A stretch of DNA of 64,000 nucleotides from positions 42,036 to 106,035 of the forward strand of contig CAYLHF010000008.1 in NCBI GenBank assembly GCA_964383365.1, in the 5' to 3' direction. The notes under the pieces were generated by a model. The model made no database searches. It was not told where the DNA came from and saw nothing but the letters and a program-made list of their open reading frames with translations. Source of the DNA: an uncultured Rhodothermales bacterium. Lineage in GTDB: Bacteria > Bacteroidota > Rhodothermia > Rhodothermales > UBA10348. Shown here piece by piece: positions 13,771 to 54,740 of the stretch. Every line of letters begins with the position of its first letter. Position 1 is the stretch's first letter. Position numbers and translations under genes: made by a program.

Positions 13771-14528
13771 GCATGGATCGTGATCTCACCTATGATGTCC
13801 TCGCATTCGCGGCGCATCCCGACGATGTCGAACTCTTTGCAGGAGGCACCGTTTGCCGGCTCGTCGAACTCGGATACCGGGTCGGTGTCGTTGACCTGAC
13901 GCGGGGGGAGCTGGGGTCGCGAGGAACCCCTGAGATACGTGCCGATGAGGCGCGCGCAGCGACGTCTGCCATGGGCATAGGTGGACGATGGAATCTGGGG
14001 CTTTCGGATGGAGACATTCAGAATACGCCGGAGAATCGTCTACTCGTGATAAGGGAATTGCGGCGACATCGGCCCGATCTGCTGCTCATCAATGCACCTG
14101 AATGTCGCCATCCTGATCACGGCGCGGCCGCCAGGCTCGTCGGCGACGCCGTGTTTTACAGCGGACTGACTCGAATAGCGTGCGGGACTGAAGAAGGCGA
14201 CGAACTGCCCCCCTGGCGGCCGCACCACGTCCTGCACTACATGCAGAACGTGCCATTCGTGCCTACGCTCATCGTTGATGTCAGTGAATCGTGGGAGCGT
14301 CGAATGAAAGCAGTCATGTCGTATGCTTCTCAGTTTTACGATCCCGGGTCAGACGAGCCAGAAACGTTTATCTCGAATCCCGATTTTCTGAAGTGGATCG
14401 AGGCGCGGGCGCGAACGTATGGATACCGAATCGGAGCCACGTACGGAGAACCTTTCCTGTACCGCCATGGTCCCATGGGGACCGATGATCCGGTTGCCAT
14501 GTTAAGGAAGAAAAAACCCTTCAGATAG
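13767..14528 (+). CDS. bshB1: PIG-L family N-acetylglucosaminyl deacetylase, bacillithiol BshB1-like
   Basis: 'VLAFAAHPDDVELFAGGT', 'DLTRGELGSRGT' and 'HPDH'. Overlaps the leuS stop (ATGA). Confidence 0.75.
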   Translation: MSMDRDLTYDVLAFAAHPDDVELFAGGTVCRLVELGYRVGVVDLTRGELGSRGTPEIRADEARAATSAMGIGGRWNLGLSDGDIQNTPENRLLVIRELRRHRPDLLLINAPECRHPDHGAAARLVGDAVFYSGLTRIACGTEEGDELPPWRPHHVLHYMQNVPFVPTLIVDVSESWERRMKAVMSYASQFYDPGSDEPETFISNPDFLKWIEARARTYGYRIGATYGEPFLYRHGPMGTDDPVAMLRKKKPFR

Positions 14529-14533
14529 GGAGT

Positions 14534-16423
14534 TCAATTGTCCCAACTCAGCACGAATCGTGTGATTCCCTGAGATAGCTCGGGAAGTACCACCCGGACG
14601 GATTTATTGTCGTCATTCTCGTAGACTTTGCCGTCCCCCCCACTGATTCTGAAGTCACCCAGGTCCTTCTGTCTCGGAAATCGGATCTCCAGCGTTACTC
14701 CTGAAATGGGATCCGGCCAGTCATAATCGATATCTACGTACATCTCGTCCCTACCCAGAGATGTGATCAATGGACGAACGTGCGAACGCTTTCGCCACCA
14801 GATCAAAATTTCTGAAACGCTCGTGATCCAAGACCCGTCGAGACGCGCCCGACTCAACGTCGCCTCGAAATCAGCCGCCCGTACCGATCGGGCGTCATAG
14901 AGTTCAGGATAAAACGGAACCACGTACATCCCCCGCGCTTCGCGGATGATTTCATAGGTCGCTTCGAACGACGATGCCAGGTCCTCGGCCAGTGGAATCG
15001 TCGAGATAATCTTGGGGAGTGGAGGAGGGCCCGCCGGCGCCGCCTCTGCTGTCTGGCCGGGGACGAAGAGTGATACGGTTTCATCCGGTTCTTCCGGTTC
15101 TTTCAGCCGCTCCCGGTAGTCCACCTGGGACCACCAGTCCACGATACCCGGAGTCAGGCTGGGTGTGCCGGAGAGGACCATGTATTCGAGGCCCATGTTA
15201 TCCATTGTACGAACCGTATTGCCGTCATAGAATCCTCCAGGAGGATATAATCCGTGGGGTTTAGGAAGACCCAATTCCCCCATCGCCTGCATCAGTCGAC
15301 TGCGTTGAACTTCAAAAGGCTGACCTTTCAGGACGTGATCGTCCTCTCCGGCCAGGCCGATTTCGCCGTCATTGATGGCCCGTCCGTACAGATCCTGAAA
15401 CGACGTGATCTCGTCTGACGTGAAGAAAAATGTGGTATGGACGTGCTGTTCTTCGAGCACATCGAGCATATGCTCCAGACCATCGATATACTGAAGCGCA
15501 TTGAACCCGACGGAGGGAAGTGATGCAACGGAAAATGCGGTAGGATTCCCGTTCGGCCACGGCCCGACTGAAACAGTCGTCGAACCGACCAGGTCGGCTA
15601 TCGCGTTCACGACGAGTGTCTGATAGTGCTGCTGTTGCTCGGGTTCCTTGCTGACTTCGTGCGGATGAAAGCGAGACCAGAAATAACGTCCCTTTTCGCT
15701 TTCGCCGGTAAGAAGTAACGTTACATCGTCAAACGCTGCCTGATCATCCGGCTGATAGGCGGTCGGTCTCCCGACTGCTCGACTGGTACCCGGACGCGCT
15801 GCGGACATCGGGATCTGGGCGGCAATATTGAGACGGTACCCCATGGGAATTCCGTCCCCCAAAGGCGTATTTCCATCAATCGACTGGAGAATTCCAAACG
15901 GCTGCGACGGCAGGTTTTCCACATACTCGGCGCCGAACAGTTCTTCGAAGACGGCACCTCCACGTCGGACACCCTCTTCATCATAGACCCCGGTACGACC
16001 CGATGCGATAACACCGCCACCATCGTGCAGATAATCCACGATGCGATCTTTCTGCCTTTCGGACATCGACGCCACGCCCGGCAGAATAATCACCTTGTAA
16101 TCGGAGGAAATACCTCGCGAGAGATCTCGATCGTCCAGGACCCGGTACTTGAGCCGTAGTCCGAGCAGCAGCAGTTCCCAATAATACACGGCATCACGCA
16201 CGATGGCCTCTCCGTTGGGCACATACGTCGCCGTCTGATTGGACCGGAAGACGGCGATGTGAACGTCCGTATCCTCCCGCAACGCGTCAATATTGTGGGC
16301 TACGGTCCTCGATGGGGCTTCCATCTGAACGAATTGAGCGACCGCCTGCGCCCTGGCGGTCCTGACGCCGGGCGCACCCAGGAGAACAACCAGCAGTGGT
16401 ACTATGAATCGAGTCTTACGCAT
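14534..16423 (-). CDS. Secreted EPS-locus protein with an N-terminal class-I GATase/Glyco_hydro_42M-like domain and a NodB (polysaccharide deacetylase)-like domain
   Basis: Signal peptide 'VPLLVVLLGAPGVRTARAQA'. 'VIILPGVASMSERQKDRIVDYLHDGGGVIASGRTG' resembles GATase-like folds. 'HTTFFFTSDE...GRAINDGEIGLAGEDDH' has NodB-like spacing, but no canonical TFDDG motif is evident. It is a paralog of the adjacent 768-aa protein and the last gene of the operon. Confidence 0.55.
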   Translation of the reverse strand: MRKTRFIVPLLVVLLGAPGVRTARAQAVAQFVQMEAPSRTVAHNIDALREDTDVHIAVFRSNQTATYVPNGEAIVRDAVYYWELLLLGLRLKYRVLDDRDLSRGISSDYKVIILPGVASMSERQKDRIVDYLHDGGGVIASGRTGVYDEEGVRRGGAVFEELFGAEYVENLPSQPFGILQSIDGNTPLGDGIPMGYRLNIAAQIPMSAARPGTSRAVGRPTAYQPDDQAAFDDVTLLLTGESEKGRYFWSRFHPHEVSKEPEQQQHYQTLVVNAIADLVGSTTVSVGPWPNGNPTAFSVASLPSVGFNALQYIDGLEHMLDVLEEQHVHTTFFFTSDEITSFQDLYGRAINDGEIGLAGEDDHVLKGQPFEVQRSRLMQAMGELGLPKPHGLYPPGGFYDGNTVRTMDNMGLEYMVLSGTPSLTPGIVDWWSQVDYRERLKEPEEPDETVSLFVPGQTAEAAPAGPPPLPKIISTIPLAEDLASSFEATYEIIREARGMYVVPFYPELYDARSVRAADFEATLSRARLDGSWITSVSEILIWWRKRSHVRPLITSLGRDEMYVDIDYDWPDPISGVTLEIRFPRQKDLGDFRISGGDGKVYENDDNKSVRVVLPELSQGITRFVLSWDN

Positions 16424-16432
16424 TCGCTTCCG

Positions 16433-18739
16433 TTAGTTCTTGGCGAAGCGGGCGGAGTACTCCGGTCCCAGCAGGTCGATGTGGAAAATCCGATACTGTT
16501 GCGGTTTCAGCTCTTTGATAGACAGTTCCAGCACGGTCCCGTTTTCTTTGAGCTGGTATGGTGGAATATCGATATCGTCGGGTATCGGTTTGAAAATATT
16601 GATCAACTCCGGTCGGATGTGAACCGACGTCGCGGGTAGGCCAAGCGAAATACTCACCGTCGCGTGTTCGGCTGTGTGTCCGTTGTCATTCGACACCCGG
16701 ACAAAAATACGAGATGGGCTTCTCTGTTCAACATCCGCATTCAATCCCTTGTGAATGCGCCACCAGGCAGCAATCGAATCGCCTGATGCGATCCAGAAAT
16801 TGTCCTGCTTCAGTCGGCGAACGATCGTTCTGAGCGTCCCCAGATTGGACGTATTTCCGAGCAGTTCGGGAGAGTAAATAAGGTTGTAGAGACTGCCTTC
16901 GTATTGAATACGATTCAAACTTTCGAGCATGAGACCGGATACCAGGTCGGGGGATTGACCCTCCAGACCGTTCATGATATCCCGGTCACTCTTGACCGTC
17001 ACGCCGATCCTTGTAAGAGTTTCAAATGGAAATCCCATAATTTTCGGAACGTTTCGACGGCCGATGGAATCAGGAATGAAGTAGGTGTAGTCGGATTCGG
17101 TCAGGCCGCCCATCGTGTTCCGGCCCAGTATTCCCCGTTCGGTCGAACGATAGCCGCGTACCGGTCCACCCACGACTCCCTCGAGCATGGTTCGAAGTCG
17201 ATTCAGGCGCCGCTGCTGTTTCTCCACGGTTCCGTCCGCCTCGACGCGAAGTGAGTCATAGACCCCGACGTCTCCCTGTTTATAGAGTCGTCGCAGGAGT
17301 TGACCATGTCTGGAAGCCTGTTCGGGCGGAACCAGGTAGGTACCGGGAACGCCCTCCTCATCGAGTACGTCTGCAACCGCCCTGAACCCGTCAATCGCAT
17401 TCTCTGTGGTTCCCGTAATCATGGCTGCGGCTTCATGCGGGTACGGCCAGTCGTGCATCCATATGATGGGCTGACGGCGGAGATAATTGATCACGTTCGC
17501 AGAGAAAATTCCAAGCCTTTGCCAGTCCTCAACGTCCCGGGGGCCCGTTCCCATGGCATTTCTCTGGAACCCCATGTACACAAATCGACCCTTTCCGTAT
17601 GTCCCGTAAACGAGACCGGTCGAACCGTCTATTATATCGCTTCCGCCGAAGTCATCCGTAGCAAAATCATACCAGAAACCGGCAGCTGCGACTCGGTCGG
17701 GTTCCCGGACACTCACCCGGACTCCCGGATTGTACACCTGGATTTTTACCCGATAACCACTCGGAATTACCGCCGTAAGTGGTGTATTTCCGCGCCATGT
17801 AAAACGTCTTATCCCGGCACTCGTCCGGGGATAGGGAATTTCCTGTTTGCGATCACCGCCCGTCCAGGTAAAATAGGTTACCAGTACGGCATCCTGTACT
17901 TCTACGCGCCCATCCAGCCCCCTGAGAGGTGCCGTAATATTCCAGGCCCGGGCAAAATCAACCGTCGGACGAGCCGAATTCAACGTGTCAAACCACGCGT
18001 AATCCTGCAATGGTGCGAAATCGGCGTCTTCTGCCAGACGCTGGTTTACCTCTCTGAGTTGTGCCTGTTCTTCATCAACCGGAGCGAAAACGCCTTCATT
18101 ACTCTTATTGAAAATATAATCCGGCACATAGATTCCTTCGGGGGTATGACCCGGGAACGTGTCTGCATAGATTCGATAGTTTCCGACTCCGCGCTCGACA
18201 AACCCTTCGAAATTGACTCCGAACGTATCCTCGATAAAGTCCCAGCCACGCCAGGTCCCGTCTTCGTAGTAGACTCCGGCAGTCCAGGAAGCGAGGACGC
18301 TGCCGCCGTTATTCATGAACTCCTGAATGCGTGCAATCTCACGATCGCTCATGGCCCGAACAGACGGAAGAATCAGCACATCGAATTTGTCCAGATCGCC
18401 ATACTCCAGATCCTCGTCGTTGATATCCATGAACGGAATTCGACGATCCTTGTCGATTAAAAATTCACGCCAGGACAGGAGGGTCTGGTCGACCCAGGTC
18501 GTTGTCGTATCCCGTAGATTCAGCGCTCTGTGGGCGCGTCGGGTATAGTCGCTGTTAAGAAGAGCTACCCGCGGGCGGTTGTCTACACCGATCTGCGTCG
18601 GAGAGGCCTCCGTTATACTGAATGCGCCGAGGGCACTCTCGAGAAGCAAAATGTATACAAGGATTCCTGCCGCCAGTGCCGTCACACCCAGCGTCAGGAA
18701 CCAGAATACATTTATTCTATCGAGTCGTGCTACCCGCAT
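16433..18739 (-). CDS. Membrane-anchored EPS-locus protein, paralog of 14534..16423 (GATase-like plus degenerate NodB-like domains)
   Basis: N-terminal anchor 'FWFLTLGVTALAAGILVYILLL'. 'DVLILPSVRAMSDREIARIQEFMNNGGSVLASWTAG' parallels the neighbouring protein. The region 'AAAMITGTTEN...GVPGTYLVPP...KQGDVGVYD' aligns to NodB motif positions but is degenerate. Confidence 0.55.
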   Translation of the reverse strand: MRVARLDRINVFWFLTLGVTALAAGILVYILLLESALGAFSITEASPTQIGVDNRPRVALLNSDYTRRAHRALNLRDTTTTWVDQTLLSWREFLIDKDRRIPFMDINDEDLEYGDLDKFDVLILPSVRAMSDREIARIQEFMNNGGSVLASWTAGVYYEDGTWRGWDFIEDTFGVNFEGFVERGVGNYRIYADTFPGHTPEGIYVPDYIFNKSNEGVFAPVDEEQAQLREVNQRLAEDADFAPLQDYAWFDTLNSARPTVDFARAWNITAPLRGLDGRVEVQDAVLVTYFTWTGGDRKQEIPYPRTSAGIRRFTWRGNTPLTAVIPSGYRVKIQVYNPGVRVSVREPDRVAAAGFWYDFATDDFGGSDIIDGSTGLVYGTYGKGRFVYMGFQRNAMGTGPRDVEDWQRLGIFSANVINYLRRQPIIWMHDWPYPHEAAAMITGTTENAIDGFRAVADVLDEEGVPGTYLVPPEQASRHGQLLRRLYKQGDVGVYDSLRVEADGTVEKQQRRLNRLRTMLEGVVGGPVRGYRSTERGILGRNTMGGLTESDYTYFIPDSIGRRNVPKIMGFPFETLTRIGVTVKSDRDIMNGLEGQSPDLVSGLMLESLNRIQYEGSLYNLIYSPELLGNTSNLGTLRTIVRRLKQDNFWIASGDSIAAWWRIHKGLNADVEQRSPSRIFVRVSNDNGHTAEHATVSISLGLPATSVHIRPELINIFKPIPDDIDIPPYQLKENGTVLELSIKELKPQQYRIFHIDLLGPEYSARFAKN

Positions 18740-18753
18740 CAGTTGTTTCGTTC

Positions 18754-19167
18754 TTATAGCCAGGCATATCCGTCATCTGGCTTCCGCTCAGACTCCCGAT
18801 TATCTTCCTGGCGGCCAGGTTCTTCAGGACGAACGGGCACGAAGCCCTCGTCCGTGTATTCCCAGAAAAGAGAATTTTGCGGTTCAGGCGCCTGAACCTG
18901 AGGCTGGACTACAACCGGGGGCGCTGTTGTCTGCGTCGCCGGTGCGACGTAGACATTGGTCTGCGCCGGCTGGGCCTCGATGGCCGCGACCTGCTGCTGA
19001 GGAGTCAACAACACGTGCGGCTCGCGCTGAGCAATGGACGTGGCACCGCCTTCCTGATACGAGCGACGCTCGCGGATCTTGTACAGGATGTACGCGGCAA
19101 CGGCCAGGATAAATGTCGCGATCGTACCGACAAGGATGATCGTTGATAAAATTGGAACGAGTTCCAT
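18754..19167 (-). CDS. Small single-pass membrane protein with Q/P-rich tail (possible PgaD-like accessory subunit)
   Basis: 'MELVPILSTIILVGTIATFILAVAAYILYKIRERR' followed by the low-complexity 'QQQVAAIEAQPAQTN...PPVVVQPQVQAPEPQ'. The stop is 14 nt upstream of the next gene's start. Start chosen at Met 19167; the listed ORF begins at 19224. Confidence 0.5.
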   Translation of the reverse strand: MELVPILSTIILVGTIATFILAVAAYILYKIRERRSYQEGGATSIAQREPHVLLTPQQQVAAIEAQPAQTNVYVAPATQTTAPPVVVQPQVQAPEPQNSLFWEYTDEGFVPVRPEEPGRQEDNRESERKPDDGYAWL

Positions 19168-19195
19168 GGTAACGGAGAGTCTATTCGAAAACGGG

Positions 19196-19381
19196 CTAAA
19201 TGCTTGTCGATCCTTCAACCGCAATCATTGTGCCCAAAACGCGTAATGAGTGATAAATGACCTTTTCAGGGTGTTTGCGACCCATAGTTCGTCTCATTTC
19301 CGGCATTTGATCCGTTATGAGACAAATCGAATCGGGAGAAAGGCGCTGACCGCTGTCAATATGTTCCAGGGCTGATTTCAT
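19196..19381 (-). CDS. Hypothetical 61-aa ORF immediately downstream of the GT2 synthase
   Basis: Its ATG lies 7 nt after the GT2 stop and it fills the gap to the next gene. I recognised no motif, so it may be non-coding. Confidence 0.3.
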   Translation of the reverse strand: MKSALEHIDSGQRLSPDSICLITDQMPEMRRTMGRKHPEKVIYHSLRVLGTMIAVEGSTSI

Positions 19382-19388
19382 GCAGTCA

Positions 19389-20930
19389 TCATTTTGGAGA
19401 ACCGGAGCCGATGCGCTCCAACTTGCCCCAGTTCATTCCGAATCCGAGAAATTCTTCAACGGTGGCGAGCGTCTTGCACACGTCCACGATCAAAATGAAG
19501 AAGAGCCGATAGAACAGGGAATAAAAAACGAGTCGGACTTCTTCTTTCTCAACCGCTACGCAATACAGTGCTGCGATCAGATCCAGAATGGTCAGCGACA
19601 ACCACCAGTAGACGATGTAGTAACTCATCTTGAATACCAGTGCGATAAAAATAAAATAGGCGTTCGCAAAAATGTTCATGATGGGCCAGATCAATGCTTC
19701 AAAAGCCATCGACCACATCACGATCGTTCCACCAAAATTGATCGTAGGATTAAAAAACAGGTCCCGATGTTTGCGGACAGCCTGAATGATTCCTCGCGTC
19801 CAGCGATACCGCTGCTTCAGAAGGTCAACGATCGTATCCGGGGCTTCGGTGTACGAGCGGGCGTCCGGCTCATATTCTACCCGCCAGCCGGCACGGATAA
19901 TTTTCAACGTGATGTCGGCATCCTCTGCAAACGTATCCGAGCTGTACCAGCCGGCATCGACGATCGCCTGCTTGCGAAACATCCCGAGCGGTCCAGGAAT
20001 GATGTTGACGAGTTTCACGATGCTCTGCGCCGAACGGGCCATATTCAAACCTTCGACGTACTCAAGCGCCTGAAGCGTCGTCCAGATATTATTCCTGTTC
20101 AGAACCTTAACGTTACCGGCGATGGCCCCCAGACGAGGGTCCACAAAATGCCGGATAGTTTTCCTGAGCGTGTCTGGAGAGAGTAGAGAGTCTCCATCGA
20201 CATTCAGTACAAAATCATATCGAGAAACCTGGATTCCGGCATTCAAGGCAGTAGCTTTCCCTCCATTCGGCTTCTGAACGAGTCGCACATCGACCGCACC
20301 GTCCCGATACGTGCCGATCACACCCTGGCCGACCCCTCTCGTATCGTCGGTTGAGCCATCATCGACCAGCAGGATCTCGTACCGCGGATAATCCATCTCG
20401 AGCAGAGATGCAACGGTACTTCGGAGAAGCTTACCCTCGTTGTAGGCCGGTACGATGATGGATACCGGTGGCAGGAAGGTATGGTCGTGTCCGGTTTCGA
20501 TCGTGTGTTTGGTCGTATTCAAATACGCCATGTTCATCAACGACAGATACCGGAACAGCAGAATTACGAGAAATAGTACGAGTGCAACGATCGAGGAATA
20601 CACAATCAATCCGCTCCAGCGGAGCTTACTCTCCCATCCGGTCAGCTTTAACAGATAGCCACCCGGATCGCGCACGAAAATATAAATGATGGCAAACAGG
20701 ATGAGCGAAATCAATCCGTATACGACGATTCGCCGGAGTAGCTGTGATTCCGATTCTCGTGCCGTCGGGCGATCGTCCTCTGGCCTCTTGATGGGCTGGA
20801 AAACCGTCTTTTCGACAGACTGTCCGGTCGACGTAACGAGAGCGGTTCCAGTGGAATGTTCCACAGGAACCAATCGCTCACGGGCATTCGACTCGCTGTC
20901 AGGTGATATGTTGTTTTCAGTTTCCATCAT
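19389..20930 (-). CDS. Family-2 processive glycosyltransferase (PgaC/IcaA/cellulose-synthase-like EPS synthase)
   Basis: 'VSIIVPAYNEG', 'LLVDDGSTDDT', 'GGKATALNAG', 'NVDGDSLL', 'FAEDADIT' and 'QRYRWTRG' (QxxRW). Transmembrane helices lie before and after the catalytic domain. Confidence 0.85.
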   Translation of the reverse strand: MMETENNISPDSESNARERLVPVEHSTGTALVTSTGQSVEKTVFQPIKRPEDDRPTARESESQLLRRIVVYGLISLILFAIIYIFVRDPGGYLLKLTGWESKLRWSGLIVYSSIVALVLFLVILLFRYLSLMNMAYLNTTKHTIETGHDHTFLPPVSIIVPAYNEGKLLRSTVASLLEMDYPRYEILLVDDGSTDDTRGVGQGVIGTYRDGAVDVRLVQKPNGGKATALNAGIQVSRYDFVLNVDGDSLLSPDTLRKTIRHFVDPRLGAIAGNVKVLNRNNIWTTLQALEYVEGLNMARSAQSIVKLVNIIPGPLGMFRKQAIVDAGWYSSDTFAEDADITLKIIRAGWRVEYEPDARSYTEAPDTIVDLLKQRYRWTRGIIQAVRKHRDLFFNPTINFGGTIVMWSMAFEALIWPIMNIFANAYFIFIALVFKMSYYIVYWWLSLTILDLIAALYCVAVEKEEVRLVFYSLFYRLFFILIVDVCKTLATVEEFLGFGMNWGKLERIGSGSPK

Positions 20931-21001
20931 GTGGCGACGGAGAGTCCATCACACCGGACCTCTGGCCGGGTGTCTATTCGTTGTCGGCAATAAAAGTGAA
21001 A

Positions 21002-24000
21002 TCATAAGGTCCAGTACAATGCCGCCGAAAATGTAAACGTGTTATACCGATCGATGAATGACCCGGCCCCACTACCGAGCGTCCGGGTTGACTGGCTCAT
21101 CGCCGTCCGCGCAGTGAGCGAAAAATTGCCTCCTAGCCGCTTGATTAGATCGGCCTCTATGCGTCTATTTACAAATCCTGCACTCTGCGCGATGACACCG
21201 ATCGATCCCCTGACCCGGATGTACCACTTGGTTCGAAGCTCGCGTTCATACTCGAGAAACATGTCGTACGTCGTGTACGCTCGGGGCGAGAAATACGTAT
21301 CGACGGTCGTTCGATAGTTGATCGCGTAATATGTCACTCCGAGATACGTGTAATCCACGATGCGGTACCCACCTTCGAGCCGAAGCGACGTTCCGAAGTT
21401 CGTATCGCTGTTTGACGCTGTATTGCCAAAGTTATCGCTCACGATATTGAAGGCCAGCGCACCTTGTACCCGGAGTACCGAGTCGGCCATGATGGTCGCA
21501 CTGCTTCCTTTCAAATCAAACTGTGTCAGCCGCAAATTGAATTGCCCGCCTCCCGGTGACCAGAGTTCAATCGAACCTTCGCCGGTATGCACCCCTATCG
21601 AGGCCTGATATTTTCCAAGCTCCTGTTTCCAGTATCGAAGACCACCGTAACCGACGGTCCTGGCACCCTCATAGTCATACAATCCGATCTCCCCGGATAT
21701 CCGGTTGGAAAAACTCGCCCGATCCGACGGCACAGGTGGCGTCAGGTCGATGTATCCACCGGCAAATATCTGATTGACGCGGCCGCGAACGATTTCTGAT
21801 CCAGGAACCAGACGGCGCGAACCACTGATGAAATGCGAGTTGACACCGGCCGTCAATACGACATCGATCGGTATCGTCACCTGTGTCTGCATTCCCTGGG
21901 CCCAGCGATCATACCGGGTGCCCCCGCCACGACTCCGAACGGCGTCGGTTGTCGGCACAACGATACCGGCAAAATCATAGCCGAGCCATTCGCCACTCTC
22001 GAGAAGAGTGGTCCTGACATCGGCACCGATCGCCACTTTGGTGTCTTCGATCATCTTCGAGTCTTCGGCCAGCATCTGGGCTTCGTTGTAGATGTCCTCC
22101 GCCTCGGCATAGAGGCCCAGGGCACGAAGTGCGTCCGCCTGCATGAATCGAACTTCGTAATCTCGCGGGTTTCTCACCTGAAGCTGTTCGAGCGCAGACA
22201 GTGCTCCTGAGTAATCTTTCCTCAGAATGCGGGTTCGTGCCATTTCTTTACCTACATCGTAGGCGAACTGCTGCTGCTGAAGCGCCTCAAGAATAGCCAA
22301 CGCATCGTCATATTTCGCCGCTGCCGTATAGACCTGGGCCAGTTCTTTGAGTTCGGCACGCGTGCGGCGTCCTCTCAATTCGAAATATCGGTCGTATGAA
22401 GCAATGGCATTGTCATACCGTTTCGCTGCCGTATAGCGCCGGGCCTCGTTGAGCACCGCTACCTGCGCCTCCTCATTGAGACGGATCTTTTCTCTGGCGA
22501 TCAAATGCCGGAGTGTCTGTATTTTTTCTATAAACCGTGGATCTCCTACTCTCTCGGCCATATCCACAAGGCGGCTCGCATCCTCGACGGCTGTTTGAAG
22601 CAATCGGTAATCGGCCGCGTCGAGAATGAGTTCACTATCCTCTGCGTACGGTCCGGCGAGAAGCGATGCGAGGTAATTTTCGCCCCGGTCATCGAGTTCT
22701 CTGTTCGACAATTCGGAGAGAACGAAGAGCCGTTGAAACTCCGTGTTGTCTGGATTCTGATCTACCAGGTACCTCGCCTGTTCGACGGCCTGTTTCCGGT
22801 ATCCATTCAGCCTGAGCGTATCCACATAGCGGGCCCGGAGCGGAAAATTTTCGGGCTGGAGGCCGATAAGCTGTACATACGCACGAATGGCATCGTCTAT
22901 TCGATCAACGATCTGGTATTGATCGATAATCTCGAGGAGTTCGTCTGTCGCGCTCGAATCCGAAGCAATTATGGGTTCGAGTTCTCGAATTCTGCGACGC
23001 GCATAATCGAGTCGCGCTGCCTTGATGGCTACCAGTCTTCCCCGATATCCTTCCTCGGCTGGATTGGTATGCGCAGGATCAACGAGTACATCGAGAGCTT
23101 CAGAGAATCGCTTGGCGTTGACGAGTTCATCGACGAGCTGATAGCGCGTCATGATGTCGTCGGGCTGGAATCGGAGTCGATACGTCAGACGGTCTATCGG
23201 AAAGAGCGGCGACTTCCCGCCGGTCGAGACGAATCCATTGTCGGTCTGGATAAAGAGTGAGAGCCACCGATCCGTCGTGCCGTAGTCTTTTTCCAGTTTC
23301 AGCAGTTGATCGTAGGCTTCTCCGTAGCGCTTGTACTTGTTCAGTTGCTCAACGAGTTTGAAGCGGGTTTCGGCGTTTCCGGGATCCCGTTCAAGAGCCC
23401 GGTAGAGTCGGTCAACGATGAATGTCGACGGCCTGTTTGGAGAGGGCTCTGTCTGCAGCCTGTTTTCGACCAGGAGCGATCGTTTCGTCCATTCAGGAGA
23501 TCCCTGATACCGTGGTTTCAGGTACGTCAGATTCTGCTGGGCTTCAAAATATCTTCCGTCATCGATCAGTAAATCGATCAACTGGAATCGTTTCCCATCC
23601 TGATTGGGGTCTGCCCGGAGTTCCCGGGTAAGTACGTCGATCGGATACTGAGATTGTGTTCCTGCGAGTCCGGGTTGGTCTCCATAATCAGAACACTTTT
23701 CCGCCTCTGTGTTATTCGGATTCAGTCGGAGTGCCTGTTCGCAGGCTTCCTTGGCCAGACGATATTTCCCCTGCCAGAGACGGAAATAGCCGAGTCGCAT
23801 GTACAGATCATCGTTGTTCGTGTAGATCTTTACATATTTCTGAGCGGTTCTCTCGCCCAGCGCGTTGTCTCCCTCGTAATTGGCGATCGCTATCAGATAG
23901 GACTGTACAACGTCCGGGGTTCCCTGTGTCTTTCGGAGATACTCTCCATACTGATCGGCAGCCTGTCTGAACAGTCGTGCCTCAAACAGGGCATCTGCAT

Positions 24001-24415
24001 ACCGAATTCGATACGATAAATTGGTCGGGTTAGCGGCGACGAGCCGCCTCATACTCTCCAGGTTGCCCCGGTTTCGTGCGACGGTCTGCTGCTGAGATCG
24101 GCGGAGTCCATTCCGAGCCTCCACGTGGGCGGGATTCAATTCCAGAATTCGCTCATAGTCCTTTGCTGCAGAAGCGAAATCGCGCCGACCCTCATGCGCG
24201 GCGGCCCGTATCAATAGCGGACGAGGGTCCTTCGATTCGGGTGTAATCAAGGTGTTCAGCAGGGCAATTGCCTCCTGAAAACGTCCTTGCGTTACCAGAC
24301 GTTCTGCACGGTCCTGTGCGGCGATATCCTGTGAAAAGGCTTCTCCCACCGGGACGAGAACCCAGATGGAGACCAGGACTACCAGCACTGTCAATCGGCG
24401 GATCATAGCGATCAC
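21002..24415 (-). CDS. Large TPR-repeat protein with C-terminal beta-barrel (PgaA/BcsC-like EPS export porin)
   Basis: Signal peptide 'LTVLVVLVSIWVLVPVGEAFSQD'. About 750 aa of TPR-like helical repeats. The last ~350 aa show an alternating beta-strand pattern ('GTSLRLEGGYRIVDYTYLGVTYYAINYR...FTFSAALYWTL'). Confidence 0.7.
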   Translation of the reverse strand: MIAMIRRLTVLVVLVSIWVLVPVGEAFSQDIAAQDRAERLVTQGRFQEAIALLNTLITPESKDPRPLLIRAAAHEGRRDFASAAKDYERILELNPAHVEARNGLRRSQQQTVARNRGNLESMRRLVAANPTNLSYRIRYADALFEARLFRQAADQYGEYLRKTQGTPDVVQSYLIAIANYEGDNALGERTAQKYVKIYTNNDDLYMRLGYFRLWQGKYRLAKEACEQALRLNPNNTEAEKCSDYGDQPGLAGTQSQYPIDVLTRELRADPNQDGKRFQLIDLLIDDGRYFEAQQNLTYLKPRYQGSPEWTKRSLLVENRLQTEPSPNRPSTFIVDRLYRALERDPGNAETRFKLVEQLNKYKRYGEAYDQLLKLEKDYGTTDRWLSLFIQTDNGFVSTGGKSPLFPIDRLTYRLRFQPDDIMTRYQLVDELVNAKRFSEALDVLVDPAHTNPAEEGYRGRLVAIKAARLDYARRRIRELEPIIASDSSATDELLEIIDQYQIVDRIDDAIRAYVQLIGLQPENFPLRARYVDTLRLNGYRKQAVEQARYLVDQNPDNTEFQRLFVLSELSNRELDDRGENYLASLLAGPYAEDSELILDAADYRLLQTAVEDASRLVDMAERVGDPRFIEKIQTLRHLIAREKIRLNEEAQVAVLNEARRYTAAKRYDNAIASYDRYFELRGRRTRAELKELAQVYTAAAKYDDALAILEALQQQQFAYDVGKEMARTRILRKDYSGALSALEQLQVRNPRDYEVRFMQADALRALGLYAEAEDIYNEAQMLAEDSKMIEDTKVAIGADVRTTLLESGEWLGYDFAGIVVPTTDAVRSRGGGTRYDRWAQGMQTQVTIPIDVVLTAGVNSHFISGSRRLVPGSEIVRGRVNQIFAGGYIDLTPPVPSDRASFSNRISGEIGLYDYEGARTVGYGGLRYWKQELGKYQASIGVHTGEGSIELWSPGGGQFNLRLTQFDLKGSSATIMADSVLRVQGALAFNIVSDNFGNTASNSDTNFGTSLRLEGGYRIVDYTYLGVTYYAINYRTTVDTYFSPRAYTTYDMFLEYERELRTKWYIRVRGSIGVIAQSAGFVNRRIEADLIKRLGGNFSLTARTAMSQSTRTLGSGAGSFIDRYNTFTFSAALYWTL

Positions 24416-24498
24416 GGAGTGATGGATAATGAATACTCACAGGAACCGTTATCGGCCGGAAATGCCAATCCTTTGATTAATCCAACGAAATAATTCCG

Positions 24499-25944
24499 TT
24501 AAGACTGATCCAGGGCGTAGCTGAGAAACTCCTCTGCCGACTGAAAAGGCCGCCCATCTGGAACAACAATGGCAGAAACAGAATGAAGGAGATGATCGGC
24601 CTGTTGCGGAGAATCCTGCCGGAGTCGTTCTTTCAGTCGCGCGAAGAAACTCTGGGCTTCCTCGGGGCGACTTTCGCCAAGAAATACAATCAAGCGCTCC
24701 TGTGATAGATCAGAGAGCATATCATCCTGTGGACGAAGCGCGGCCCGGACCAGGTCCATCAAAAAATCAAAGTCGAACGGACGAGCCGAGGCGTCTTTCC
24801 GATCCATCCTCATGGCCAGCAGAAGAAACGGCTGTAGACCTGATTCACGCATCAGAAACTTCTGCTGCAGACGTAACCGGAACGTCTCACGATCGGTCAC
24901 ATCTGGTAGTCGATCGGTCGCTGTCGGCTGCTCAATTTCGGCTTCCGTAGCTGAACTATGAACGAATTCATCGGCCGGAGGAGGCGTAGTGGGTGAGGGT
25001 ACGTCAGCCGAAGGAGGGGCGTATGGCTCGGTCGGAGCATATGCAGCAGGCCGCTCTGGCGGCGCGGAATACGTTGGAGGTGCGGGCTGCGCTGCCGCCT
25101 GGTAAGCCGGTTGCGTGGGGCCCGGGGAAGTCTGTGTTGCGGGGCCCTGGGAAGCCTGTGTTGCAGGCCCGGGTTCTGCATAGACCGTATGTGCCTCCGT
25201 TGGCGCTCCGCCGCGATCGGGTGTCCCCGAAGTCGACGCGTCTTCGACCACATCCTCGAGGTCCCAGTAGTCCACGACCTGTCGTTTGATGTGTCCGATG
25301 TGCGGAACAAGCGTCACACGACGCTTCGTCGTTGTCGGATTCTCGTCCGCCAGTTCGATATGAATTGATCCGGTCATCTGCATCGACATGAAATCAATCA
25401 CGCGGCGCGACTGCTGATTTGCGGGTTCGGGCATGACGACCATCAGTGTCGTCTCGAGCGAGTCGATCTGTTCCAGAAACTGGATAAACTCGACTCTGAA
25501 TCGATCGAAGGACCGGAAGGCTACAAACGGAAGAAAGTCGTTCATCACCAGACGGGTCGGACGGTGCTTCCGGATAAGACCGATGAGATCCCAGAGTGCC
25601 TTGGATACCCCGTCATCTCCCATCTGCTGTACGTTCATGAGGGGTGGGACGCGCATGAGTCGAACGATACCACTCTCGTAAGCATGTCTGAGATTGAATC
25701 CGATCGAAGCGGCCTGAATGATGAGGTCCTTCTGGCGATCGGCTGAGATAAAGAGGGTTGGTTCCCGAAGCGTCGCCCCGGTTCGTGCGAACATAAGCGT
25801 TAACAGCCCACGACCACTGGCCGCTTTACCATAAACGAGGTAGGACCCACCGCGATACAATCCACCCCAAGCGTTGTCGATCACATCGATGCCCGACAGG
25901 TGCTTTGGAGCAAATGCTACTGAGGAGACTGTAGTCGCGTTCAT
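24499..25944 (-). CDS. RecA/KaiC-like domain (degenerate P-loop), Pro-rich linker, and degenerate GGDEF-like domain with RxxD; putative c-di-GMP-sensing EPS regulator
   Basis: The N-terminus 'GIDVIDNAWGGLYRGGSYLVYGKAASGRGLLTLMF' resembles KaiC/Rad55, but the Walker A is GKAASGRG with no GK[ST]. The linker is 'GPATQASQGPATQTSPGPTQ...'. The C-terminus 'RPQDDMLSDLSQERLIVFLGESRPEEAQSFFARLKERL' aligns to GGDEF-domain 'RxxD-x5-GGDEF-vvil...' with GGDEF replaced by LSQER. Confidence 0.55.
   Translation of the reverse strand: MNATTVSSVAFAPKHLSGIDVIDNAWGGLYRGGSYLVYGKAASGRGLLTLMFARTGATLREPTLFISADRQKDLIIQAASIGFNLRHAYESGIVRLMRVPPLMNVQQMGDDGVSKALWDLIGLIRKHRPTRLVMNDFLPFVAFRSFDRFRVEFIQFLEQIDSLETTLMVVMPEPANQQSRRVIDFMSMQMTGSIHIELADENPTTTKRRVTLVPHIGHIKRQVVDYWDLEDVVEDASTSGTPDRGGAPTEAHTVYAEPGPATQASQGPATQTSPGPTQPAYQAAAQPAPPTYSAPPERPAAYAPTEPYAPPSADVPSPTTPPPADEFVHSSATEAEIEQPTATDRLPDVTDRETFRLRLQQKFLMRESGLQPFLLLAMRMDRKDASARPFDFDFLMDLVRAALRPQDDMLSDLSQERLIVFLGESRPEEAQSFFARLKERLRQDSPQQADHLLHSVSAIVVPDGRPFQSAEEFLSYALDQS
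25117..25164 (-). repeat. Intragenic 24-nt tandem repeat (2 full copies plus a partial) encoding the octapeptide GPATQ(A/T)S(Q/P)
   Basis: Plus-strand units 'ggggcccggggaagtctgtgttgc' and 'ggggccctgggaagcctgtgttgc' are 22/24 identical and are followed by a partial third unit. Confidence 0.8.
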
Positions 25945-25963
25945 TGCGAACTGTTTCGAATTA

Positions 25964-26007
25964 CAAAAATAGGGATACCGATCGAGTACCTAACAAACGG
26001 TGTGCCG
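25964..26007 (-). promoter_or_regulatory. Candidate promoter for the EPS operon
   Basis: On the minus strand, 'TATTTTTG' (reverse complement of 25964..25971) matches the Bacteroidota -7 motif TAnnTTTG and lies 22 nt before the ATG. A 'TTTG' sits 22 nt upstream of it. An overlapping 'cGGCACaccgtTTGt' is an imperfect sigma-54 -24/-12-like element. Confidence 0.25.
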
Positions 26008-26344
26008 AGTTTCGGAAAACAAGCGCAAACGGTCTGATATGGACAATTTCCTACGTCCCGCCCTCTATTATCGCCTGAAATCTCACTTTTTCAACCCCCG
26101 GGATCACTATTTCGAGACCAAAGACCAATCTCTATTTGAGATTATCCTTCCCAGAACGGGGAAGTTCCGGTTGAAAACCATCACAATGCACAGTTGTTGC
26201 TACCTGGGACTATGGATATTTGATTTTGGTCCGATACTTGTCTTTACATAATGAGCCAACGTGCTCCAACACGCCACACAACCTGTTCCAGTGTCGAAAG
26301 CCACAACGACCATCATGCACAGATATTCTCGATTAGGGATCCAT

Positions 26345-28192
26345 ATGCACCGAACGACCCGATCGGTCCTTCCCGCTGTTCTATTCGGACTCTATCTGGT
26401 CCTGGCCTCCGGTTGCGACATATTCGGTACGGCCATCGATGATCGCGCACCGACCATCAACATCATAAAGCCATTTGATCAGGCGACGGTTGCCGGGAAA
26501 AATGTTCTTATTTCGATCACGGCACAGGCTATCGGCACCGACAATTTCATCTCCTTCATCAACGTGAATGTGAACGGTGTAAGGGCTGGAGAAGCCGTTC
26601 TCGACAGCGCCCGGTTTAATTTCCGACTCAACACACTCGACCTCGAAGACGGTCTGTATAGAGTAGAAGCGGTCGCGTTCGACCATTTTCAATCCAGAGG
26701 AATCTCCGCTCCTGTGCTGATTACCGTCGCCAACAAGAGTGATGGTCCCGGACCCGAAATGCAGATTATCACCCCGGACAATAATGAGCAGGTCGGAGGA
26801 TTGGTCCGTGTGGTATCTCGAACCGCCCCCGCTCAACCGTTCGTGACCCGGGTCGATCTTCTTGTCGATGGTATTGCCGTTGCATCTACGAACAATGTAG
26901 TCGGTGGCAATTCATTTGTGTTCGACTGGAATGCCCTCAATGAAACGCCCGGGGAACACATCATCGAAGTGAAGGCCTATTCGGGTCCGACGACGTTTCG
27001 ACTGTCTGAATCAAAAACAGTAATCGTCCGTGGTGACGGAACGAGCGGCGGTATCGGAAAGCCTGGTACCGTTCGGTGGCGAGCCGCCGGGTTCAAGGGC
27101 GATGTGAAAGGTTCGGTAGCGGTGGGCTTCAATAACGATATTTACGTCGGTACGGCTTCAGACACGCTCTATGCGTTTTCGAATCTCGGTGCTCTGAAAT
27201 GGAAATTTGCGACCCGGGGTCCCATCCGGTCATCCCCTCTTGTCGGAAATAATGAAGATGTCTTCGTGACCAGTGAAGATGGTAGACTCTATGGACTTAA
27301 CTCGACGGGCGCAGAACTGTGGCCAGCCTATAACACGGGTGCTCTTCTTCGATCTTCCCCCACGCTCGGTGTCGAAGGGCGGCTCTATTTCGGTGACTCG
27401 AATGGTAGGGTGCATGCGGTAAATTCCTTCAACGGTCTGTCGACCGGGGGACGTTGGCCGGTAAGCGTGTCGAGTTCGCCGATCGTAGTTCCACCGGTTA
27501 TAGCCCGGGATCGTACGATTGTCGTGGCCACAACGGACGGCTTCCTTCACGCCCTGGCACCGGACGGAACGCTTCTCTGGACGACGACTCAGAACGTCGG
27601 AAGTATTATGGTCGGAATGGCGCTCATCGAACGTCAGCTGACGGTAACGCTGCCAACGGGTGAATCCAGGACGTCTACTGCCGTCATTGTATACGCCGTT
27701 TCAAATGACGGTATCATTTACGCCATTGCAGCAGAAGACGGATCCATCTTGTGGAGTTATCCATTGACGGGTCCACTGCGATCAGGACCGGTCGTCGGGA
27801 CGGACGGGGCCATCTACGTAGGCACATCGACTGGACTCATTGCCCTGAATGAGGATGCTGACGCCTTCACGCCGCGACTCCGTTTTGTATTTCCGGCACC
27901 GGACGTAGGCACGCCCGTCGTCGACGCGAGCGAGGTGGTCTATTTTGTGAGCGGACGAACCGTATTTGCCATCAATCCGAATAATACTCCATTCTGGGAA
28001 TTCGATCTCGGAACGCAGTCGGACGGCCCTCCGACTATCAATCGCGAAGGGGGACTGTTGGTCGCCGGGCAGAATGGATTGATGACATCGCTCGAGACGG
28101 GCTCGGTAGGACTCGCTCCAGGAAAATGGCCCATGTTCCAGCGAAATGCGAGGCACACCGGACGCCTTGGAATCGACGCCGACGACGGATAG
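26345..28192 (+). CDS. Lipoprotein with N-terminal Ig-like domains and C-terminal PQQ/BamB-like beta-propeller repeats
   Basis: Lipobox 'LYLVLASGCD' after Met 26345; the ORF is also open from GTG 26261. Ig-like segments 'INIIKPFDQATVAGKNVLISI' and 'MQIITPDNNEQVGGLVRVV'. Repeats 'LYAFSNLGALKWKF', 'GRLYGLNSTGAELW', 'FLHALAPDGTLLW' and 'IIYAIAAEDGSILW'. Terminal 'WPMFQRNARHTG'. Confidence 0.75.
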   Translation: MHRTTRSVLPAVLFGLYLVLASGCDIFGTAIDDRAPTINIIKPFDQATVAGKNVLISITAQAIGTDNFISFINVNVNGVRAGEAVLDSARFNFRLNTLDLEDGLYRVEAVAFDHFQSRGISAPVLITVANKSDGPGPEMQIITPDNNEQVGGLVRVVSRTAPAQPFVTRVDLLVDGIAVASTNNVVGGNSFVFDWNALNETPGEHIIEVKAYSGPTTFRLSESKTVIVRGDGTSGGIGKPGTVRWRAAGFKGDVKGSVAVGFNNDIYVGTASDTLYAFSNLGALKWKFATRGPIRSSPLVGNNEDVFVTSEDGRLYGLNSTGAELWPAYNTGALLRSSPTLGVEGRLYFGDSNGRVHAVNSFNGLSTGGRWPVSVSSSPIVVPPVIARDRTIVVATTDGFLHALAPDGTLLWTTTQNVGSIMVGMALIERQLTVTLPTGESRTSTAVIVYAVSNDGIIYAIAAEDGSILWSYPLTGPLRSGPVVGTDGAIYVGTSTGLIALNEDADAFTPRLRFVFPAPDVGTPVVDASEVVYFVSGRTVFAINPNNTPFWEFDLGTQSDGPPTINREGGLLVAGQNGLMTSLETGSVGLAPGKWPMFQRNARHTGRLGIDADDG

Positions 28193-53037: not shown

Positions 53038-53625
53038 TCAGCGCGATGTTTCCTGAAAGAGCTCTTCCCGTTCACTGCAGGCTTCCCTGAAGCGTCCGTA
53101 CCATTCCGTTCCGAACTTACGACTCAGCGGCCGTTCCAGATACTCGATTAGAGTCATTCCTTGACGTGTTCCGGATTTTCGTCCGGACGCACAGATGCCA
53201 ATCTGCTCGTAATTTATTGCCTGAAACTCACCAAGGTCTTCCACACGCAGGGGATAGAGGTGACACGAGATCGGTTTGGGAAAGGTCACCTCGCCTCGCT
53301 CGTGAGCCTGTTGAATGGCACATTTTGCCACCGGTCCTTCGTAAACGACAAAAACGCACTCCGCCGATCCGACGCAGGTTGTGGCATACGACCCACCAGA
53401 GGCAAATTCCCAGACACCACGTTCCTCGATTACCTTTCGAGCCTCGGGCCTGAGACGATGTTCGACGACGGGCAGCACTTTTTCTAGTTCCGCGCACTCG
53501 TCGGCCTCGAGCGGTGCACCCGAATCTCCCTGTACACAGCAGGCCCCTAGACAGGCACCCAGATTGCAGGAGAAAGAAGCCCCAATCAGTTCGTCAGAAA
53601 TGAGTATTTTATCTACAGCAAACAT
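53038..53625 (-). CDS. DUF3109 family Cys-rich protein
   Basis: 'FSCNLGACLGACCVQGDSGAPLEADE'. About 195 aa. Its stop lies 3 nt from the rpoN start. Confidence 0.65.
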   Translation of the reverse strand: MFAVDKILISDELIGASFSCNLGACLGACCVQGDSGAPLEADECAELEKVLPVVEHRLRPEARKVIEERGVWEFASGGSYATTCVGSAECVFVVYEGPVAKCAIQQAHERGEVTFPKPISCHLYPLRVEDLGEFQAINYEQIGICASGRKSGTRQGMTLIEYLERPLSRKFGTEWYGRFREACSEREELFQETSR

Positions 53626-53687: not shown

Positions 53688-54740
53688 ATGCCGCCGCGAG
53701 CGGGAACGCCGATGATAGAGCGTGATGCCTCACTGGATCCCACGACACCGCCCGGTGAAGAAGACATTGAACGGGCTCTCCGGCCCCACAGCCTGGACGA
53801 GTTCATAGGGCAGGAAAAAATCAAGGAAAACCTGTCCATCTTCATGACGGCAGCCCGGCACCGTGGGGAATGCCTGGACCACGTTTTGTTGTCGGGACCT
53901 CCGGGCCTCGGAAAAACAACGCTGGCCTACATCATCGCCTCCGAGATGGGTGCCAGCATCAAGACCACATCAGGCCCCGTCCTGGACAAACCCGCAAGCA
54001 TTGCCGGACTCCTGACCAATCTGAACGAGGGTGATGTGCTTTTCATCGACGAAATACATCGCCTTTCGTCGGTCGTAGAAGAGTATCTCTACGCTGCGAT
54101 GGAGGATTATCATATAGATATCCTCATCGACTCCGGACCAAATGCCCGGAGTGTCAAAATTACGCTTCCACCATTCACACTGGTAGGAGCAACGACGCGT
54201 AAGGGCCTGTTGACTGCTCCCCTCCGAGCGCGATTCGGAATCGACTTCAGGTATGATTACTACTCGGCGGCGAAACTGACCCGGATCGTCGAACGATCTG
54301 CACGCATTCTGGGAGTCGATTGCACGTCGGACGGAGCCATCGAAATGGCGCGGAGAAGCCGCGGGACTCCCCGTATAGCCAACCGTTTGCTCAGACGGAC
54401 CCGTGATTTTGCCGAGGTCCAGGGCGATGGCTCGATTTCCCAGGCCATCGCAGACCATGCCCTGAATGCCCTGAACGTGGATCAGGAAGGACTCGACGAG
54501 ATGGACGCCCGAATACTGGTCACCCTGATCGAAAAATTTGGTGGTGGCCCCACGGGCTTATCGAACCTCGCTGTATCCGTAGGCGAAGAAGCGGGAACGA
54601 TCGAAGAAGTCTACGAACCTTATCTGATTCAAGAGGGCTACATCGAGCGAACTCCCCGTGGGCGTATCGCTACCGCGCTCGCATATAAGCATTTTAAACT
54701 CGGCCCACCCCCTGAAACTCCTGACCTGTTTGCCTCATGA
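53688..54740 (+). CDS. ruvB: Holliday junction branch migration helicase RuvB
   Basis: '[13 protein letters not shown]', '[14 protein letters not shown]', 'LFIDEIHRL' and '[13 protein letters not shown]'. Confidence 0.96.

Follow-up and report, generated by a model that had tools for sequence, protein, structure and literature searches.

Gene content of the locus

The DNA analysed here is a stretch of 64,000 nucleotides (nt) from contig CAYLHF010000008.1 (positions 42,036 to 106,035 of the forward strand) of assembly GCA_964383365.1, derived from an uncultured Rhodothermales bacterium, and is referred to below as the window. On its minus strand it carries a gene cassette that is, on balance, probably a complete and so far unnamed type of synthase-dependent exopolysaccharide (EPS) secretion machine. 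The first-pass annotation of this DNA had listed seven minus-strand open reading frames (ORFs), and all seven are present, separated by gaps of 83, 71, 7, 28, 14 and 9 nt as it had given. Their products are numbered P1 to P7 by position in this series, and each coordinate below refers to the window.

The first gene encodes P1 (24499–25944; 481 amino acids, aa), a cytosolic regulator in which a KaiC/RecA-fold domain is joined to a GGDEF-like domain. It is followed by P2 (21002–24415; 1137 aa), an exported tetratricopeptide repeat (TPR) protein with a probable C-terminal outer-membrane beta-barrel, and by P3 (19389–20930; 513 aa), a processive membrane synthase of glycosyltransferase family 2 (GT2). 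A small single-pass membrane protein, P5 (18754–19167), comes next and has 137 aa when read from its ATG, the start used here; the mechanically called ORF begins at a TTG at 19224. The series ends with two periplasmic paralogues that combine a GATase1-like domain with a domain resembling carbohydrate esterase family 4 (CE4), the membrane-anchored P6 (16433–18739; 768 aa) and the secreted P7 (14534–16423; 629 aa). Scans with hidden Markov models (HMMs) and hydropathy analysis confirmed most of the domains assigned in that annotation, namely KaiC/RecA, TPR, GT2, a weak CE4 and GH42M/GATase1-like.

The remaining ORF, of 61 aa (19196–19381), lies between the genes for P3 and P5. It has no Pfam or NCBIfam match and no equivalent among some 100 related loci, and was never recovered when all window proteins were compared by tblastn with 20 related loci; an ATG-initiated ORF of at least 30 aa is absent from this position in most Rhodothermales-type spacers. 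Because it lacks a counterpart in related loci it is not counted as a gene. It is probably a chance ORF, which reduces the seven ORFs to a unit of six genes and makes the real spacer between the GT2 and P5 genes 221 nt long.

Conservation and spread of the cassette

A check of related genomes found the genes to be strongly co-conserved, and across phyla. The order P1–P2–P3–P5–P6–P7 is common to all ten Rhodothermales loci with enough sequence for comparison by tblastn. P1 has 154 homologues at E ≤ 1e-3, in Rhodothermales or Bacteroidota wherever the source is named, and these share contigs with the homologues of P7, of which there are 33. A genome scan with a P7 profile returned 15 loci, all from Rhodothermales or ‘Bacteroidota’ metagenome-assembled genomes (MAGs), and all adjoining a convergent PIG-L gene and the gene for leucyl-tRNA synthetase (LeuRS). 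Run with HMMER against 1.84 billion representative proteins, the P7 profile matched 3409 sequences at E ≤ 1e-3 and 215 at E ≤ 1e-30. The same cassette surrounds distant P7 matches in candidate division WOR-3 and in GCA_030834565.1, and an Acidobacteriota MAG carries it too, there without an adjacent KaiC-like gene.

A metagenome scan with a GT2 profile gave at least 516 confirmed relatives, and the loci of 80 of these were retrieved and mapped with component HMMs. A KaiC-like gene stands upstream in 32 of the 34 loci that have at least 7 kb of upstream sequence, an ORF of at least 700 aa directly precedes the GT2 gene in 31 of 34 evaluable loci, and both a small transmembrane (TM) gene and a P6/P7-like gene lie downstream in 53 of the 54 loci with at least 3 kb on that side. 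Two P6/P7 paralogues are found in only 12 of the metagenome loci. The core of the cassette is five genes, and the duplication that yields P6 and P7 belongs mainly to the Rhodothermales-type clade and to a minority of other loci.

Some genomes keep parts of the cassette at the same PIG-L/LeuRS site: Rhodocaloribacter litoris has P1 alone there, and two loci, L017 and L020, retain only a truncated remnant of P7. Partial cassettes of this kind suggest lineage-specific decay, and the P1 and TPR genes left in L002 and L003 have the same look.

The synthase and its small membrane partner

P3 has the build of a processive membrane GT2. Its GT-A domain lies between TM helices, with two N-terminal and about three or four C-terminal segments by hydropathy, and the D, DxD, (T/A)ED and Q(R/Q)xRW signature of these enzymes is represented by DDGS, DGD, AED and QRYRWTRG, all invariant in an alignment of cassette GT2s. 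It scores 115.9 bits against Pfam Glyco_tranf_2_3 and 127 bits against the NodC model, and a P3 profile gives full-length matches in the PDB to membrane hyaluronan synthases. In its grouping the enzyme sides with the processive synthases (PgaC/IcaA, NodC and hyaluronan synthase). PgaC/IcaA, NodC, hyaluronan synthase and chitin synthase all use UDP-N-acetylglucosamine (UDP-GlcNAc). As this is the substrate of the nearest GT2 families, and as P6 and P7 are of CE4 ancestry (see below), the best guess at the product is probably a GlcNAc-containing polymer, the linkage being beyond prediction.

Cassette GT2s also share a cytoplasmic C-terminal tail of the pattern K..(A/S)(T/S).EEFLG..M.WGKLER.G, in which several residues are invariant (residues ~486–513 of P3; 19389–19470, minus strand). 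P1 or P5 might dock on this tail, which is largely missing from Escherichia coli PgaC.

Of 54 evaluable metagenome loci, 53 have the gene for P5 immediately behind that for the GT2, and in a distant clade of the family (L024, L026 and L043–L104) it starts 8–44 nt after it. P5 has one N-terminal TM helix, MELVPILSTIILVGTIATFILAVAAYILYKIRER, which is among the stretches of the cassette most conserved across phyla, and the KIRERR that follows the helix leads to a predicted topology of N-out/C-in. The rest of the protein is a variable Q/P-rich cytoplasmic tail with a conserved C-terminus, ...GFAWL, whose penultimate Trp is kept across clades. No Pfam or NCBIfam family matches P5. The small partner had been described as unrelated in sequence to PgaD, and BLASTP agrees (E 0.71, no similarity), nor does it find similarity to BcsF. 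In topology P5 is nevertheless closer to BcsF, a single-pass protein with a cytoplasmic tail, than to PgaD with its two TM helices, and by analogy it is hypothesised that P5 recruits P1 in a BcsF-like way.

The outer-membrane protein

P2 begins with a hydrophobic segment consistent with a signal peptide and continues with TPRs over residues ~30–800 (Pfam) into a conserved C-terminal domain of ~310 aa, rich in Gly, Ser, Thr and aromatic residues. Alternation of hydrophobicity in this domain stands well above shuffled sequences (z = 3.84, compared with z = -0.69 for the TPR part). The protein ends in ...ALYWTL, and the termini of its family likewise alternate aromatic and hydrophobic residues (AFWTIF, ALYVSF). 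From these features the domain is likely to be an outer-membrane beta-barrel porin. A homologue search with the C-terminal region returned only 2 proteins.

A signal peptide, a long TPR region and a C-terminal domain of ~300 aa with beta-barrel character are what BcsC, PgaA and PelB possess as well, but P2 differs from them in reaching no family HMM cut-off. Its likeness to BcsC includes a weak co-linear match that centres on a YYSPQ-like motif; the match to PgaA is weaker than that to BcsC and not significant (hhalign).

The periplasmic paralogues

P6 and P7 are recognisably paralogous by tblastn. P6 is the core member of the pair, the single copy of most other lineages being P6-like, and consists of an N-terminal TM anchor (residues 9–44 by hydropathy), a GATase1-like domain, a CE4-like domain without catalytic residues and a C-terminal beta domain; it has weak matches to the GH42M and XrtA-deacetylase models. 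The signal peptide of P7 was judged by eye, as the hydropathy scan did not flag the N-terminus. An AlphaFold2 (AF2) model of P7, with a mean predicted local distance difference test score (pLDDT) of 82.5 and a predicted template modelling score (pTM) of 0.82, resolves three domains: a GATase1-like alpha/beta domain (~50–285), a (beta/alpha) CE4/NodB-like domain (~290–545) and a beta-sandwich (~549–628).

Both proteins weakly match the GATase1-like ‘trimerisation’ domain of GH42 enzymes. The best Foldseek matches of the P7 model are GH42 and GH164 enzymes, over ~270–290 columns (E 6.5e-11), and are read from the model as matches to the non-catalytic domains of those enzymes. The top 50 Foldseek matches are to the N-terminal domain (GH42/GH164) only, and the CE4-like domain was judged by sequence profile. 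Here P7 scores 29.9 bits against PF01522 (Polysacc_deac_1), just above the cut-off of 23.1, and a profile of the CE4 region of the P7 family matches deacetylases in the PDB (3rxz at E 2.4e-16; also PdaA and PgdA).

Where CE4 enzymes have TFDD, H(S/T)xxH, RPPxG and LxH, P7 has AFSVA, GEIGLAGEDD, LYPPGG and PFYPE, and P6 has AAMITG, GDVGVYDSL, YRSTERG and LIYSPE, so that the Asp-Asp, His-His, Arg and His catalytic motifs are gone from both. Homologues in the same gene context in loci L023 (2368–4221) and L025 (10001–11890 and 12342–14273) keep HSDDH/HGDDH, RPP(Y/E/L) and the His of motif 5, with a single Asp in motif 1; these homologues may be active deacetylases. Because the window paralogues have lost motifs that the L023 and L025 proteins mostly keep, the family is read, from its sequences, as descending from a CE4 deacetylase and as having turned into pseudoenzymes in many lineages, that of the window among them. 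The earlier description of a modifying protein both duplicated and degenerate is thus borne out. P6 and P7 probably do not deacetylate the polymer, and the role favoured for them is to bind or guide it between synthase and porin.

The KaiC-like regulator

P1 matches PF06745 at 53.9 bits and KaiC in the PDB at E 1.2e-23. Its AF2 model (pLDDT 82.9) has a confident KaiC-like domain at residues ~10–240, a variable, Pro-rich linker (~240–345) that is disordered, and a confident alpha/beta domain of GGDEF-like character at ~350–481. Foldseek aligns KaiC CI, FlaH and PH0186 with template modelling scores of 0.70–0.75; its top 50 matches concern the KaiC domain only, and the GGDEF-like domain was judged by sequence profiles.

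The nucleotide-binding motifs are degenerate. Walker A reads G39xxxxG44-R45-G46 rather than GxxxxGK[ST] and does not qualify as an ATPase motif, and Walker B reads N135-D136-F, without the catalytic Glu. R45 is found in 116 of 119 homologues, position 46 is G, D or S, and almost all of them have other residues where the Walker A Lys/Thr and the catalytic Glu would stand. Given this degeneracy across the homologues, the KaiC-like domain is a probable pseudo-ATPase in the window's clade.

The C-terminal domain is matched by GGDEF_2 in 15 of 16 family members (best E 9e-5), by GGDEF in 9 and by PelD_GGDEF in 2 (best E 8.7e-4); one homologue rises above the curated cut-off, at 30.9 bits. A profile of the domain found nothing significant among PDB sequences. 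In the segment RPQD-DMLSD-LSQER, R404-x-x-D407 precedes the GGDEF-equivalent ‘LSQER’ by five residues, and in the AF2 model the RxxD falls just before strand beta2 while the GGDEF-equivalent residues form part of the beta2-beta3 hairpin. Sequence and predicted fold agree in describing a degenerate GGDEF domain with RxxD in the position of the I-site. Among the 119 homologues R404 is kept in 93 (78%), D407 in 118, E416 in 118 and R417 in 116. The predicted topology, beta-alpha-beta-beta-alpha-beta-alpha, matches the trimmed GGDEF* cores of BcsE and PelD, two proteins whose degenerate RxxD GGDEF domains are proven receptors of cyclic di-GMP (c-di-GMP) [PMC7439463]. By its sequence, and by analogy with these proteins, P1 is most likely a c-di-GMP receptor.

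The likeness to BcsE had been remarked on at the outset, when P1 was called a BcsE-like sensor. BcsE is a cytosolic protein with a degenerate RecA/KaiC-like N-terminal domain and a degenerate GGDEF domain with an RxxD I-site, and is recruited by BcsF, a short single-pass membrane protein of the same system [PMC7439463]. In architecture the comparison holds. Homology, however, is not detectable: P1 has no match to PF10995, hhalign gives BcsE a probability of 0.2%, and the AF2 model has no REC-like domain, the place of REC* being taken by the long Pro-rich linker. P1 is a BcsE analogue, not a detectable homologue. Two distant family members have sub-threshold matches to the N-terminal part of CBP_BcsE (L096, 5629–6861, 13 bits; L051, 3993–5252, 11.9 bits; cut-off 25), a faint hint that the N-terminal domain of BcsE and the KaiC-like domain of the cassette are related.

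A degenerate GGDEF domain with a retained I-site, encoded beside an EPS synthase, is also what PelD and PssE/YdaK represent, and the PelD_GGDEF matches in two P1 family members, weak as they are, point the same way. P1 differs from PelD in being soluble and in having a KaiC-like domain in place of TM and GAF domains.

Transcription and neighbouring genes

The short gaps between the ORFs had been taken to imply a single operon, which is now doubtful. Two elements of the sigma-54 type (-24/-12) were found by pattern matching on the minus strand, GGCACACCGTTTGT at 25993–26006, 49 nt upstream of the start of P1, and GGCACAATGATTGC at 19221–19234 in the GT2–P5 spacer, 53 nt upstream of the start of P5. 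Both have GG at -24, GC at -12, the proper spacing and a conserved position. In Rhodothermales-type loci the spacer is 150–340 nt long, and the only conserved block in its alignment is GGCAC-N5-TTG(C/T), which fits the sigma-54 consensus. The element upstream of P5 is present in 20 of 21 such loci, at 45–57 nt in 19 and at 251 nt in one; that upstream of P1 is present in 9 of 13, and also in L002 and L003. Several copies have TTGT or TTGA instead of TTGC. Against a background of one pattern match per 24 kb, the strict pattern occurs three times in the window, where 0.31 would be expected, and the pattern scan found no such element ahead of either the P2 or the P3 gene.

Because the two elements are conserved in position, they suggest two sigma-54-type transcription units, P1–P2–P3 and P5–P6–P7, rather than one operon. 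Sigma-54-type promoters would in turn call for an enhancer-binding protein encoded elsewhere, and none with a GAFTGA motif is encoded in the window. The third exact match to GGCAC-N5-TTGC, at 53554–53567 on the plus strand, lies 121 nt upstream of an ORF at 53688–54740 (plus strand) and may be another sigma-54 promoter. A generic scan for sigma-70 promoters and terminators gave counts no higher than in shuffled sequence. A riboswitch was considered and rejected, since Rfam has no RNA family at E ≤ 1 in 13500–27000 and RNAalifold finds no structure in the GT2–P5 spacer.

The LeuRS gene and the PIG-L family deacetylase gene (together 11065–14528, plus strand) converge on the end of the cassette, and the pair is syntenic in all Rhodothermales loci. 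PIG-L was rejected as a component of the system, as it stays with LeuRS in Rhodocaloribacter litoris, which has no full cassette. The divergent neighbour of P1 on the other side (26261–28192, plus strand) codes for a PQQ-like beta-propeller protein with Big_7 Ig domains, and L004 has a similar gene upstream of its P1.

A proposed secretion machine

In the machine that we propose, P3 would polymerise the polymer and translocate it across the inner membrane, likely from UDP-GlcNAc or a related N-acetylhexosamine, with P5 as its obligatory single-pass partner. Once in the periplasm, the chain would be taken up and guided by P6, which is anchored in the membrane, and P7, which is soluble, two CE4-derived pseudo-deacetylases that also carry a GATase1-like domain and a beta-sandwich. 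P2 would serve as TPR scaffold and, through its probable beta-barrel, as exit across the outer membrane. P1 would control activity post-translationally, as a c-di-GMP receptor docking on the synthase complex, possibly via the cytoplasmic tail of P5 as BcsE does on BcsF. Transcription would probably start at the two sigma-54-type promoters under the enhancer-binding protein just mentioned.

Several observations weigh against parts of this reading. The C-terminal domain of P2 has no Pfam or PDB sequence match, and its broad profile aligns with the C-terminal region of E. coli BcsC only weakly (hhalign probability 30%, E 5.6e-4). As for P6 and P7 as non-enzymes, several invariant or near-invariant acidic residues of the CE4-like domain, E354, D400, D435 and E507, could form a different active site. 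The window P1 itself scores 16.8–17.1 bits against GGDEF_2, below the cut-off of 24.5, and 22% of its close homologues have Gly at position 404. P1 stands alone at the syntenic site of R. litoris, and L002 and L003 keep P1 and the TPR protein in a different neighbourhood, so that P1 may have a role independent of the synthase. Finally, the RxxD is found only in the Rhodothermales-type clade; in the distant clade, which is the larger, the position reads ‘KKDK’, and the KaiC-like domain of that clade keeps a G(R/K)T in Walker A and FDE in Walker B. As that clade combines ATPase-type motifs with a lack of RxxD, c-di-GMP sensing cannot, to judge by these sequences, be the ancestral role of P1 and, if real, would be a trait of the window's clade and not of the whole family. 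The inverse pattern of Walker motifs and RxxD between the clades suggests a switch in what the regulator senses.

A wider evolutionary reading that we hold tentatively, as quite possible, takes the proposed machine to be one member of a distinct and ancient multi-phylum EPS family, with representatives in Rhodothermales, WOR-3 and Acidobacteriota and in abundant lineages known from metagenomes. What would set the family apart is a regulator that is KaiC-like where other systems have a PilZ or PgaD-type receptor, and a periplasmic protein that fuses a CE4-derived domain to a GATase1-like one. The ancestral P1 would have bound a nucleotide triphosphate; in Rhodothermales the I-site would be newly fixed and the regulator would have become a c-di-GMP-sensing pseudo-ATPase, with the deacetylase becoming a pair of pseudoenzymes.

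Alternative readings and relation to named systems

P6 and P7 might instead be active enzymes, such as a glycoside hydrolase, a lyase or a non-canonical esterase using a re-purposed CE4 groove, and thus akin to the hydrolase modules of PgaB (GH153), PelA and BcsZ rather than passive chaperones. To our knowledge, every characterised synthase-dependent system has a periplasmic hydrolase or lyase, and the cassette offers no other candidate; the acidic residues named above, invariant or nearly so, would be natural participants in catalysis. These conserved residues differ between P6 and P7, however, and neither protein resembles the catalytic domain of a glycoside hydrolase, the Foldseek matches covering non-catalytic GH42 and GH164 domains only. 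Enzymatic activity is therefore considered unlikely, if well short of negligible.

It is similarly doubtful that P1 is a nucleotide-dependent KaiC-like switch or assembly factor, binding ATP or acting as an autokinase, with the GGDEF-like domain as a protein-interaction module. The KaiC-like domain is the universally conserved part of P1, and P1 persists where synthase genes are absent. In the distant clade the Walker motifs are retained, RxxD is lacking, and Pfam sees no GGDEF domain in the C-terminal part. In the window's clade, by contrast, the Walker A Lys/Thr and the catalytic Glu are lost almost throughout, whereas D407, E416 and R417 are near-invariant and R404 is kept in more than three-quarters of the proteins, in a type of domain with proven c-di-GMP receptors in BcsE and PelD [PMC7439463]. 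The receptor remains the preferred reading of P1 in this clade.

A divergent pga operon, with poly-beta-1,6-GlcNAc (PNAG) as product, P3 as PgaC, P2 as PgaA, P5 as a replacement of PgaD and P6/P7 as diverged PgaB, is improbable. The parts do run parallel to PgaA, PgaC, PgaD and PgaB, which supports the original description of a synthase-dependent EPS-type locus: the synthase-dependent layout is that of Pga/Ica, the gene for a small membrane partner immediately follows that for the synthase, a periplasmic protein has CE4 ancestry, and a TPR protein bears a C-terminal domain for outer-membrane export, here a predicted one. Moreover, PgaC_IcaA (TIGR03937) is the best NCBIfam match of P3, which is homologous to E. 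coli PgaC (32% identity, E 1e-40). That match nonetheless reaches only 202 bits, under the curated equivalog cut-off of 422.3, and cassette GT2s are 43–54% identical to one another across phyla but 26–32% identical to E. coli PgaC. P2 falls outside the PgaA model (TIGR03939; 32.5 bits, cut-off 366.65), and P5 spans the membrane once and does not resemble PgaD in sequence. No convincing hhalign match was obtained to E. coli PgaA, PgaB (probability 0.6% for the P7 family) or BcsE, nor any BLASTP match to PgaD or BcsF. The CE4 domain of the cassette has lost its deacetylase residues, whereas PNAG export in E. coli requires deacetylation by PgaB; it is fused to a GATase1-like domain, and no GH153 domain accompanies it. 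Pga systems, lastly, have no KaiC-like component, and the cassette adds a KaiC-like/GGDEF-like regulator and sigma-54-type promoters.

Other named systems differ as well. The cassette synthase lacks the PilZ domain of the E. coli-type cellulose system, and BcsQ, BcsR, BcsB and BcsG are absent; it is a GT2 and not, as in Pel, the GT4 enzyme PelF. The first-pass annotation had described the locus as assembled from pga-like and bcs-like parts, but only the GT2 is detectably homologous to a pga or bcs protein, and the cassette is a coherent, old, cross-phylum unit and not a local mosaic. Its other statement, that the gene set is not recognised as a named EPS system, agrees with the comparisons made: no named system matches, and the cassette departs from each named family in defining features that were tested. 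A full-text literature search, itself of incomplete coverage, gave no account of this gene set, and the cassette is apparently undescribed in the literature searched.

That the locus is merely two separable adjacent modules, P1–P2 for regulation and the outer membrane and GT2–P5–P6–P7 for synthesis, would fit the isolated P1 and P2 of L002/L003, the lone P1 of R. litoris, the Acidobacteriota locus without an adjacent KaiC-like gene and the sigma-54-type promoter that each half has of its own, but it is very improbable, since across phyla 32 of 34 evaluable loci have the two halves side by side and identically ordered, and the exceptions resemble decay, with truncated P7 remnants at the PIG-L/LeuRS site in L017 and L020.

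Significance

Few synthase-dependent systems have been characterised, among them those for cellulose, PNAG, Pel and alginate. A recent survey tool counts 14 described systems of this kind. The interest of the present cassette lies in its spread across phyla, in its KaiC-fold regulator and in the contrast between pseudoenzymes and motif-retaining relatives. Homologues that retain CE4 motifs and homologues that have lost them, in the same gene context, would amount to a natural experiment in pseudoenzyme evolution. The KaiC-fold/GGDEF-like protein would be a new class of regulator, directly comparable with BcsE and PelD, and the contrast between clades, one with ATPase motifs and no RxxD, the other with RxxD and no ATPase motifs, would make the role of the BcsE-type RecA-like half testable. 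For environmental groups such as Rhodothermales, WOR-3 and Acidobacteriota, which are poorly studied and in which it is widespread, the cassette would supply a candidate matrix polymer.

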